From IMG/VR virus record IMGVR_UViG_2778261358_000001: DNA of 13,563 nucleotides; one strand, given 5' to 3'. Positions within the stretch are counted from its first letter, which is position 1. Every line of letters starts with the position of its first letter. The stretch comes from a virus (Duplodnaviria; Heunggongvirae; Uroviricota; Caudoviricetes). This document shows positions 9,001 to 13,563 of the stretch, one piece after another. Position numbers: made by a program.

Positions 9001-12000
9001 CGGCGGCCACCGGGGATTTTTTCTTTGTGATTTCATCAAGCGCATACTTAAAAGCCCTGCTAATCGGACTGATGTCTGATGCCATTCCGAAAGCACACAA
9101 GACCGAAGCAATAAATCTCCAGTCCGTTCTGCTTATCTTCGATTCATGACAGCCAATCATCTTTGCCAGACCGCGCTGGGTAAGCGTTGACAGGTTGATG
9201 AGTAAATCAGTTTCAGCGCGATCAATTTCTCGCTGTGATAGTTTGCTGTAACTTGTTTGTTCCATTTCTTAAGATTTCCAATAGTGAATAGCTAGTTGAA
9301 AGGTATGCGTGGAAACGCATATGGCCTTAGTTGGTCAGATATATTGGGACTCGCTTTGTCAGCGACGTAGGACGAATGTCCATTGTGAAAATAGCGGTGT
9401 TACTTATGCAGCCAGAAGGTTCTTTTTGCTTATTTCAAGCATTTCGCTTGCTTGATATTTGCCACCAGAAATCTCTTCGATTTTTGATGCGTATTTAGTT
9501 TTCCCAAAAAACTCAGTCTTAGGGAGGAAGCCGTTTTTGAGCCACTTATAGACAGCCCTTTCGCTAACTCCACAAGCCTTCGCAACTTCAGGGATGCCGA
9601 CACCTTTAATCGGCTCATCAAGATTTTGCATAGGAATATCCTTTTTCGTACTTTCAGTACGTATTATGGTTGAACTGAAAGTTTTTGCAAGTGCTTTAGT
9701 ATCGTACTCATGGTTCAGAATGAAAAAGTGCGCAAAGAATTCGCCCAGCGGCTAGCGCAAGCCTGTAAAGAAGCTGGTCTTGATGAACATGGTAGGGGAA
9801 TGGCTATAGCCCGTGCCCTTTCTCTTTCGTCCAAAGGCGTTAGCAAATGGTTTAATGCTGAGTCTTTACCGCGTCAGGAAAAAATGAATGCGCTTGCGAA
9901 ATTTCTAAACGTTGATGTTGTTTGGCTTCAGCACGGCACTTCGTTAAATGGAGCGAATGATGAAGATACTCTTTCATTTGTTGGCAAATTAAAAAAAGGG
10001 TTAGTGCGCGTGGTTGGTGAGGCAATTCTTGGTGTTGATGGTGCCATCGAGATGACCGAAGAGCGCGATGGGTGGCTCAAAATTTATAGCGATGATCCAG
10101 ATGCCTTTGGTCTTCGTGTGAAAGGAGACAGCATGTGGCCCAGAATAAAATCAGGAGAATATGTACTCATTGAGCCTAACACCAAAGTATTCCCGGGTGA
10201 TGAGGTGTTTGTCAGAACCGTTGAAGGACACAACATGATTAAGGTTCTTGGCTATGACAGAGATGGAGAATACCAATTTACAAGCATTAACCAGGATCAC
10301 AGGCCTATAACGTTGCCTTATCATCAAGTAGCAAAGGTGGAGTATGTAGCTGGTATTCTGAAGCAATCTCGCCATCTGGATGACATCGAGGCAAGGGAGT
10401 GGCTGAAAAGTTCGTGACTTCATCGTCACATAGCTGGTAACCAGTGGCCTGAAGAGACGTTTGGGTAAGGAGGATAGATGGCGTTCAATGACCTTGAATA
10501 TCAAGCAGTAAAAAAAGAAGTTCACCAATTCATTGAAAGCATAAGGCCGCCTGAACATATCCGCAATGAACTGGATATTGTTTATAGCATCAATGACCAA
10601 ACGATAGATATCGGCGAACAGCGCCCCGTGTGGCAGGGCAATCCAGGTGAAACAAACATCCTGCCATCAGCAAGAATCAAGTACATACGTTCTCTGGATA
10701 GATGGAAAATCTATTGGATGCGGAAGGATATGAAATGGCATCAGTACAGTACTGAACTTTCGCTGACTGATGCGCTTGAGCTTGTGCGTGCTGACCCGGA
10801 TTGCTGCTTCTTCGGATGAGTGAAGAGACGTTTGGATGATGGATGGTCGCAGAGATGCGGCCTGATTCTAAAATAGGATATAAAAAATGAGAATACTAGG
10901 TGTTAGAGCGGCGCCCAAAGTTACATCTTTTGTTGTATATTGCACTAATGAGTCTGCACTCAAATGTGTTGATGTTATTAAAATACCTTCGACCTTAGAC
11001 ACACCAGAAAAATTAAAGTATGTGAGAAATAACATCCTCGACATTCTTAATTTATATAATGTTGAATTAGCTGCCATACGCGTTACTGAATCAAACTCTG
11101 ATAATCTTAGCATTGACCGCCTTTATATAGAAGCTGTTATTCAAGAAGCATTTTCAAGCAGTGATGTAAGAAAATATTACACTATTAGAAAATCTGGCAT
11201 GAAATCATCATTGAACCTAACAGAGATCGAGTATAAAGAAATATTGAAGTCACACCGCAATATAAATGGAATCGATAATTCTGGTTTTACAGCTGAAACA
11301 AATGAAGCTGTTTTGGCTGCACTATCTGCGGAGGTAAGGGGATGCTAACTCCATACAAAAGAGCTGATGTAGAATTCGAATGGATTAGTGATCTAGAAGA
11401 ACAGGGTTGTTTTTCAAAAGTATATCTGGCTCATGACAGACACCTAGCTCATGACTTGGTGATTAAAGAAATAGAAAAAAAAGAAAACACTAACCACGAC
11501 GACTACTTTAATGAAGCAAGGCTTCTCTATAAACATGCACATCCAAATATTGTGCAAGTTCAGTATGCTGCTCAATGTGAGAGCAATATCTATATAGCCA
11601 TGCCATTTTATCATAATGGTTCGCTAAACCAATTAATGAAAAAAAATAATCTTACAAGCAGGGAGATAATACGGTATTCCATTCAATTTTTAAGTGGACT
11701 TTATCATATACACTCAAAAGGTCTTATGCATTTTGATATAAAACCTAATAACATTATGATATCAAACAGAAATGAGGCCATGCTATCTGACTTTGGATTA
11801 TCTCAGTTAGTCAATGAGGAATCGAGAGCTGCGCCTGAGTTTGGATATCATTTTCATGTGCCACCGGAATATTTTTCTTTATCAACAAATGATTATAATT
11901 TCACATATGACATATATCAGGCAGGATTAACCATATATAGAATGTGTGTTGGACATGATAATTTTGAAAGAGAAAGATCTGCATTTAGCACGATTGAACA

Positions 12001-13563
12001 ACTCAGAGAGTCGATAATTAATGGCTGCTATCCATTAAAAGAGTATCCTCCCCATATACATAAAAAATTAATAACAATAGTGAACAAATGCATTCATGTA
12101 GATCCAAATGAAAGATATCAATCCGTACTAGATGTACTAAACGATCTCTCAGCTATAAGTGATGGCGTTCTTGACTGGCGTCTACAGATGACGAAACCAA
12201 CTAACGGCACATGCGAATGGCAAAAAAAGTCTGGGGACGCTATACTGTCTATAGTTTTTGACGCAGAAAATTCGTCTACTACTGGTTTTCGTTTATACGA
12301 TGATGGGCGGAAAAGGCGTGCTACGAACTTAACAATATCCTCAGGATGTACCCCTACAAAACTGTATAGGTTATTAAAGGATAACTGATCATGAAAAAGC
12401 GCGAGGAAGTAAGCAAGCTGCCTCGCAGACGTGATGCAGCATTAGCGGTTCCCTACAAAAAAGATGAGTTCATAAGCCCTTCTGATGACAAAAAATTTTC
12501 AAAGGCGAAAAGTTTTACATCTACATCTCTAAAAGATAAATACTTTAAAATCTAGCCCGGCCTCAGCGCCGGGTTTTCTTTGCCTCACGTTCGCCCACCT
12601 AAAAAACATAACCAATTGTATTTATTGATGTAACTCGCTAAACCATGCAGTTATGATCCCTGCCGCATAACCTTCATCAGCCACATTTTCAAAAATAAAT
12701 TTCCTTATATATCAGAATCATACTTCGTAGAGTTAATAAATCACCAAAATTCGTACCAATAGTTCTTGATAATGTCGAACTACTGGTTCATTATTATCAT
12801 CGTCAGCAGGACGCATTACTCACCAGGTCGGTGAATATACAACGATTCGAATATGAATCTACGGCGCTGACAAAGCGCAATAACCAAAGTGAACTTTGGG
12901 GTGTGGTGAAGGGTTCATGGACGGGAATATGTCGCACGTAAAGCGGCGAGGCCTGCGGGACTATTGCCGAATTGAAGTAGGCCGAAACAGGTCGAAATGG
13001 GTCTCCCACCTACCACACCACCAAAGTTCATCAGGAGGTCTATATGACACGCAGAACTCAGTTCAAAGGCAATTCACGTTCTCGTCGTCGTGAGCGTTTA
13101 AAGGCAAAGGCATTAGCTAACGGCGTACTGGCCCGCGAAGAAGCAATAAGTTCAGAAGTATTACACCGCCCTACTCTAAGCAGAGCGCAGATTCAGGCTA
13201 AAGGTACTCACGAAACGCCTGAGCGCATAGAAGACGCTAAGCCAATTAAGTTCATGGCACAGGACGTGATCTGGCAACAGAAAGAATACAGACGCAATCT
13301 GGAGCGAGCGGCCATTGTGTACGCGAATGAGTTTGGACATAAGCAACCAGAAACTGGTGTATGTCTTCCAAACGTAGCCATTTACGCGGCAGGCTACCGG
13401 AAATCAAAACAACTGACGGCGAGGTGACTTGTGTTGGTCGCCAGAAAATGAAATTAGGCAGCAAACCACTTATTTGAGGTGAGATATGAACCGCCCCGGG
13501 AATCCTGGAGACTAAACTTCCTGAGAAAGAGGTAAACAGGATGACTAAAAATACTCGTTTTTC

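Follow-up and report, generated by a model that had tools for sequence, protein, structure and literature searches.

Five 15-bp palindromes in the immunity region of a Caudoviricetes sequence match the operators of phage 933W

IMG/VR record IMGVR_UViG_2778261358_000001 is a stretch of Caudoviricetes DNA of 13,563 nt (13.5 kb; hereafter the window) that carries a lambdoid immunity region with a CI repressor, Cro and the N antiterminator. The subject here is a set of five short palindromes in this region, three at oR, between cI and cro, and two at oL, upstream of N. Judging from their agreement with annotated and published sites, they are almost certainly real repressor operators, namely OR1, OR2, OR3, OL2 and OL1 of phage 933W. 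The 933W switch controls production of Shiga toxin 2 (Stx2) in Escherichia coli O157:H7, which makes these operators medically relevant.

The gene layout is that of a lambdoid CI/Cro switch, in which divergent cI and cro flank oR, and oL with its promoter pL lies upstream of N. On the plus strand, cI (9710-10417) encodes a 235-aa repressor with Pfam HTH_3 (helix-turn-helix) and Peptidase_S24 domains and has no Shine-Dalgarno (SD) motif upstream. On the minus strand, cro (9404-9631) encodes a 75-aa helix-turn-helix protein recognized by Pfam HTH matches, annotated as cro in 933W and without base differences from it. The N antiterminator gene (13044-13427, plus strand), transcribed from pL, is annotated as N and matches Pfam N_peptide at 2.1e-15. 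A promoter scan placed pR, which serves cro, at 9663-9690 on the minus strand (TTGCAA-16-CATAAT), at the same coordinates as pR in the 933W record AF125520, and pL at 12766-12794 on the plus strand (TTGATA-17-CATTAT). Each was the sole promoter-like match to the consensus in its interval (9550-9800 for pR, 12380-13060 for pL). The putative promoter of cI, pRM (9675-9702, plus strand), combines a weak −35 element (CTGAAA), a 16-nt spacer and a −10 element TAGTAT; it scored below the threshold of the consensus scan and is annotated as a putative pM in AF125520.

The five sites are laid over these promoters. OR1 (CGTACTTTCAGTACG, 9647-9661) is the pR-proximal site and covers the predicted pR start region; 12 of its 15 positions are self-complementary. 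OR2 (TGAACTGAAAGTTTT, 9671-9685) occupies the pR spacer and overlies the putative pRM −35, and OR3 (CGTACTCATGGTTCA, 9703-9717) follows the pRM −10 directly and has its midpoint on the A of the cI ATG (9710). At the other end, OL2 (CGTACCAATAGTTCT, 12752-12766) abuts the pL −35, with one shared base (12766), and OL1 (CGAACTACTGGTTCA, 12776-12790) lies in the pL spacer and covers the first two −10 bases. OR1, OR3, OL2 and OL1 are exact matches to the core motif described below, and OR2, which ends GTTT, deviates in one half-site by having A for G at position 2. As the preliminary description had it, one oR site (9704-9716 in its 13-bp form) overlaps the cI start. A 'terminator-like' match called at 9647-9661 is merely the OR1 palindrome.

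Scanning the window for G[AT]AC-N5-GT[AT]C (GWAC-N5-GTWC) returned five exact matches, starting at 9648, 9704, 12125, 12753 and 12777, against 0.41 expected in a window of this length; none of 200 shuffles reached five. Four of the five fall inside the 554 nt of control region (P = 1.3e-5). These four are sites that the preliminary description had claimed. Its statement that the same architecture recurs five times holds for them to the letter, whereas its middle oR site (9672-9684, GAACTGAAAGTTT) carries one mismatch to the pattern and the fifth literal match lies inside stk, a kinase gene. In a leave-one-out position-weight scan of the non-training 15-mers of the window, OR1, OR3, OL1 and OL2 each ranked first and OR2 ranked third, and the five operators score 12.8-16.7 on the matrix built from these same sites. 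Neither the pattern with one mismatch allowed nor the matrix scan detected a third oL site, and the three-operator oL of lambda, which there supports long-range OL3-OR3 cooperativity, was not found, the two scans giving two oL sites only. A generic inverted-repeat search missed the operators, since it requires a 6-nt seed and their arms span only 4 nt.

Comparison with annotated phages identifies the sites individually. Between 9300 and 13100 the window is 99.9% identical to 933W (3.8 kb) and to dozens of Stx1- and Stx2-converting phages. Comparison with AF125520 over 4.4 kb shows 11 substitutions, all of them outside 9126-10792, which makes cro, oR and cI identical to those of 933W; repressor residues 1-97 are likewise 100% identical to 933W and many Stx phages. 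AF125520 annotates oR1, oR2 and oR3 at window positions 9647-9661, 9671-9685 and 9703-9717, together with pR, the putative pM, tM and nutL. A further record, GQ499361, places OR1-3 identically and gives OL2 as 12753-12768 and OL1 as 12775-12790. The window sites agree with the annotated operators of both records to within one base. Four of the five sites, OL2 among them, are identical in sequence to their 933W counterparts, and the only difference in OL1 is at the central base pair, with which repressor makes no direct contact. The order of features on the plus strand is also that of 933W: cI is followed by a DUF3024 gene, an open reading frame of 153 aa (orf153), stk (11342-12388), which encodes a 348-aa Ser/Thr kinase, a 54-aa open reading frame (orf54), and then tM, oL and N. 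The intrinsic terminator tM (12554-12575, plus strand), found by the terminator scan and annotated in AF125520, closes the cI-stk operon upstream of oL. On this evidence the window can be firmly assigned at the sequence level to imm933W, an assignment that rests on the identity of cI, cro and oR to those of 933W and not on the operator motif.

The operators themselves were already known, having been annotated since 1999 and characterized biochemically since 2004. The 933W repressor has five natural 15-bp sites, rotationally symmetric and conserved at positions 2-5 and 2′-5′. Their conserved block opens with G at position 2, one OR2 half-site excepted, followed by A or T at position 3 and an unvarying A and C at positions 4 and 5. 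Position 6 takes T or C, A there being reported to bind much more poorly, and the central base pair is A-T (PMC3317979). The three oR and two oL sites recognized in the window coincide with this set. Affinities were determined there by electrophoretic mobility shift assay (EMSA) and DNase I footprinting, alongside in vitro selection (Bullwinkle et al., Koudelka laboratory), with OR1 reported as the highest-affinity natural site (PMC3317979). The EMSA on the five sites that the preliminary description proposed is accordingly in print. In that work, contacts by S41, K42, K46 and E51 were modelled, and S41 and K46 were mutated as a test (PMC3317979). Residues 41 and 46 of the window's cI are S and K, matching the published mutant numbering, so the start codon of the published protein is the ATG at 9710. 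Other studies describe three oR sites and no OL3 (PMC5977221), an absence of cooperativity between OR1 and OR2 with similar affinities for OR2 and OR3 (PMC5977221; PMC4848623), and low cI mRNA levels and easy induction tied to 933W operator features (PMC4848623). Binding, affinities and footprints at the five sites, with their regulation, are thus the contribution of published work, and the site identity, statistics, phylogeny and promoter geometry that of the present analysis, to which we add the firm 933W-type assignment, a caution about the motif and one rare operator-centre variant.

That caution emerges from more distant relatives. A tblastn search with the DNA-binding domain returned 106 phage records at at least 95% identity, and diverged relatives included Lambda_2E9 (98%), Salmonella phage SI5 (80%), Providencia phage PSTNGR2lys (63%) and HK022 (50%). 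These four share one layout, with OR1 and OR2 24 bp apart, OR2 and OR3 32-33 bp apart and two oL sites 24 bp apart. In the aligned control regions of 4-5 phages, 39 of 40 core columns (eight per site) show no variation, versus 38 of 147 for the other columns (Fisher p = 1.5e-17). Invariance among aligned relatives extends to the key −10 bases of all three promoters, namely A2 and T6 of the pR −10, CAnnAT at pL in five relatives, and TAnnnT at the putative pRM. OR2 has the identical sequence in SI5, and all five related phages have the cI ATG at the centre of OR3. The window displays each of the family's features: 15-bp dyads with G(A/T)AC at positions 2-5, three oR and two oL sites, and OR3 on the cI ATG. 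Lambda_2E9 and SI5, phages not named as Stx-converting, have the same or a closely related cI/cro/operator module.

The preliminary description held that the motif defines immunity specificity and would allow the immunity group to be assigned. A motif unique to this immunity type, and able by itself to assign the group, would account for its strong enrichment at oR and oL and for its difference from the lambda-type 17-bp operators that stand at the same place in mEp234. Yet HK022, PSTNGR2lys and SI5 carry the same core at the same positions. The HK022 operators annotated in X16093 (TGAACTTATGGTTCA, GGAACTGATAGTACA, TGAACTTATGGTTCA, TGTACTATTGGTACT and TGAACTTTAAGTACA) all fit G[AT]AC-N5-GT[AT]C, and each has all 11 of the determinants published for 933W; their scores on the 933W matrix, 13.7-16.0, fall within the range of the window's own sites. 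Among the modelled contact residues, K42, K46 and E51 do not vary from 933W to HK022; S41 alone is altered, to P. We therefore regard such uniqueness as improbable. Since HK022, SI5 and PSTNGR2lys have the same core and layout, the motif alone cannot assign an immunity group; it marks an HK022/933W-like switch family rather than a single group, and by itself gives no discrimination among the groups of HK022-like phages. The comparison with operators of known lambdoid immunity types that the preliminary description had suggested thus places the window in the 933W type, with a core found in the HK022 family as well. Its observation of the palindromes and their assignment as operators were correct, and its claim about immunity specificity was overstated.

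The likeness to HK022 is close in architecture, comprising 15-bp sites with the same core, spacings of 24 and 33 bp at oR and 24 bp at oL, two oL sites only, and an OR3 centred on the cI ATG with a conserved −10 seven nt upstream. In contrast, the repressors are only 27% identical overall and 50% identical in the DNA-binding domain, and the C-terminal domains are different. A Koudelka-laboratory review relates the N-terminal domain of the 933W repressor to that of HK022 and its C-terminal domain to that of H-19B. HK022 also differs in having a sixth exact site, GTACTAAAAGTAC, just downstream of cro (X16093, 164-176); no counterpart was found between cII and cro in the window (9266-9403), even at one mismatch. 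The 'molecular basis for cross immunity' is reportedly the subject of Fattah et al. 2000, a study cited in the same review.

With lambda, the window shares the divergent cI and cro around a tripartite oR, an oL/pL driving N, the S24 domain, a cI without an SD and a −10 placed for a start at the AUG. The sites, however, are 15 bp rather than 17 bp long and unrelated in sequence, and oL has two of them against three in lambda. OR2 and OR3 are 32 bp apart in the window, compared with 23 bp in lambda. OR3 lies on the pRM start and not between the −35 and −10 elements, and cooperative binding to OR1 and OR2, according to the published work, does not occur in 933W. The similar affinities of OR2 and OR3 are a further published difference from lambda. 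In mEp234, lambda-type operators take the place of the oL/pL block between homologous flanks: homology to this heteroimmune phage and to another, Stx1a_PV728, is lost from ~12640 and resumes at ~12800, just past the pL −10, which makes the block part of the exchangeable immunity cassette.

The match at 12125-12137 (GTACTAGATGTAC) in stk raises the question whether repressor also acts at this position, perhaps as an auxiliary site ~630 bp upstream of oL, which would bring the functional sites to six. It is an exact match (GTAC-N5-GTAC) and has the best non-operator score in the window, 10.1 bits versus at most 8.5 for the rest. It nonetheless scores under all five operators, one of its half-sites has the disfavoured A at position 6, and it lies inside coding sequence. 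A single chance match is not unusual when 0.41 are expected per window, and published work counts five natural sites only (PMC3317979). We consider a role for this copy very improbable and retain the count of five operators.

Some observations do weigh against identifying these five palindromes as the operators. The record of Stx2 phage I, AP004402, annotates different 17-bp 'putative operators', some of them in orf153; OL1 of the window differs from the published site at its centre; and the annotated pRM −35 (CTGAAA, 9675-9680) lies wholly inside OR2, the centre of which would stand at about −32 for a start at 9710, an unusual position for an activating site. In lambda, OR2 is centred near −42. 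That the AP004402 features (window 9664-9680, 9695-9711, 9730-9746 and 11133-11213) are the true operators and the GWAC palindromes incidental deserves practically no credence, because, although deposited as regulatory features, the six 17-mers have no common motif, three lie inside orf153 and none holds a complete 15-bp site, they find no support in the 933W record, GQ499361 or the biochemical papers, and the GWAC cores, not the 17-mers, are what diverged relatives conserve. These operator features, which do not fall on the sites defined by experiment, are probably a mis-annotation, and we found no evidence that contradicts assignment of the five palindromes as operators. The same record also annotates a second 'maintenance promoter' inside orf153.

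The departure of OL1 from 933W consists of a single base, C at 12783 in place of the T found in 933W and all other aligned relatives. In the five related phages, 24 of the 25 sites carry A or T there, OL1 of the window being the exception. BLAST found no exact match to the 12783C variant in 50,697 phage records (best 99.6%) or in 5,426 complete E. coli genomes (best 98.8%), and an exact-pattern scan gave zero matches in IMG/VR and GTDB representative genomes. In a consensus site, changing the central A-T pair to G-C lowers affinity ~3-fold (PMC3317979). As a real natural variant, 12783C would weaken the pL-proximal operator ~3-fold and could make pL leakier and a Stx-type prophage easier to induce, a proposal that we put forward as rather doubtful; the base could also be a sequencing error. 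Two further substitutions relative to 933W lie just downstream of pL. At 12799 the window has A versus G in 933W, a change common to phi345, and at 12828, in the annotated nutL region, a second private substitution puts T for an otherwise invariant G.

The geometry at the other end of the cassette bears on the cI transcript. Of eight genes checked, all but cI have an SD-like motif upstream, in line with the preliminary description, which noted that cI has no SD. A gap of 7 nt between TAGTAT (9697-9702) and the cI ATG would put the start at 9709 or 9710, and TAnnnT is invariant at the same distance from the ATG in SI5, PSTNGR2lys and HK022. Moreover, OR2 is only 24 nt from the ATG, which leaves little room for a leader if OR2 lies upstream of the promoter core. 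It is plausible that the cI mRNA from pRM is leaderless, as in lambda, starting at or one base before the AUG. The leaderless transcript proposed in the preliminary description fits the sequence in these respects, but an explicit statement that 933W cI is leaderless was not found in the searchable papers. For the mapped start of pRM in 933W, the legend to Fig. 6b of PMC4848623 cites Koudelka et al. 2004.

The literature on 933W shows binding and regulation at these sites, and the arrangement in the window fits the same scheme. A CI dimer binds each roughly two-fold symmetric 15-bp site, and its two helix-turn-helices each recognize G-(A/T)-A-C, at positions 2-5 of the respective half-site. Repressor at OR1 and OR2 occludes pR, and at OL1 and OL2 it occludes pL; the block silences cro and N and, acting through N and Q, the stx-bearing late operon of 933W. 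Occupancy of OR2 stimulates pRM, and occupancy of OR3, which lies on the predicted pRM start and the cI ATG, shuts it off. With similar affinities for OR2 and OR3, no OL3 and no pairwise cooperativity, pRM is partly self-repressed and repressor kept low, so that RecA-stimulated autocleavage through the S24 domain readily tips the switch and induction is easy. By analogy with lambda, we infer that Cro may use the same sites.

Outside the switch, Lambda_2E9 and SI5 have a gene of ~900 bp between cI and oL in place of DUF3024-orf153-stk, and lysogen-expressed cargo appears to be exchangeable independently of the switch. At the level of the whole window, the left 2.4 kb (1-2406) does not align with 933W, and the closest record taken overall, JLK-2012, aligns in six pieces that make up only 86% of the window and are 97.6% identical to it. 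By these alignments the phage or prophage is a mosaic, with no end-to-end match in the phage collection. A further departure from 933W lies in cII (8969-9265, minus strand), where six of the 11 substitutions cluster in 70 bp (9056-9125), a distribution suggestive of a short segment acquired by recombination from a different lambdoid cII allele.

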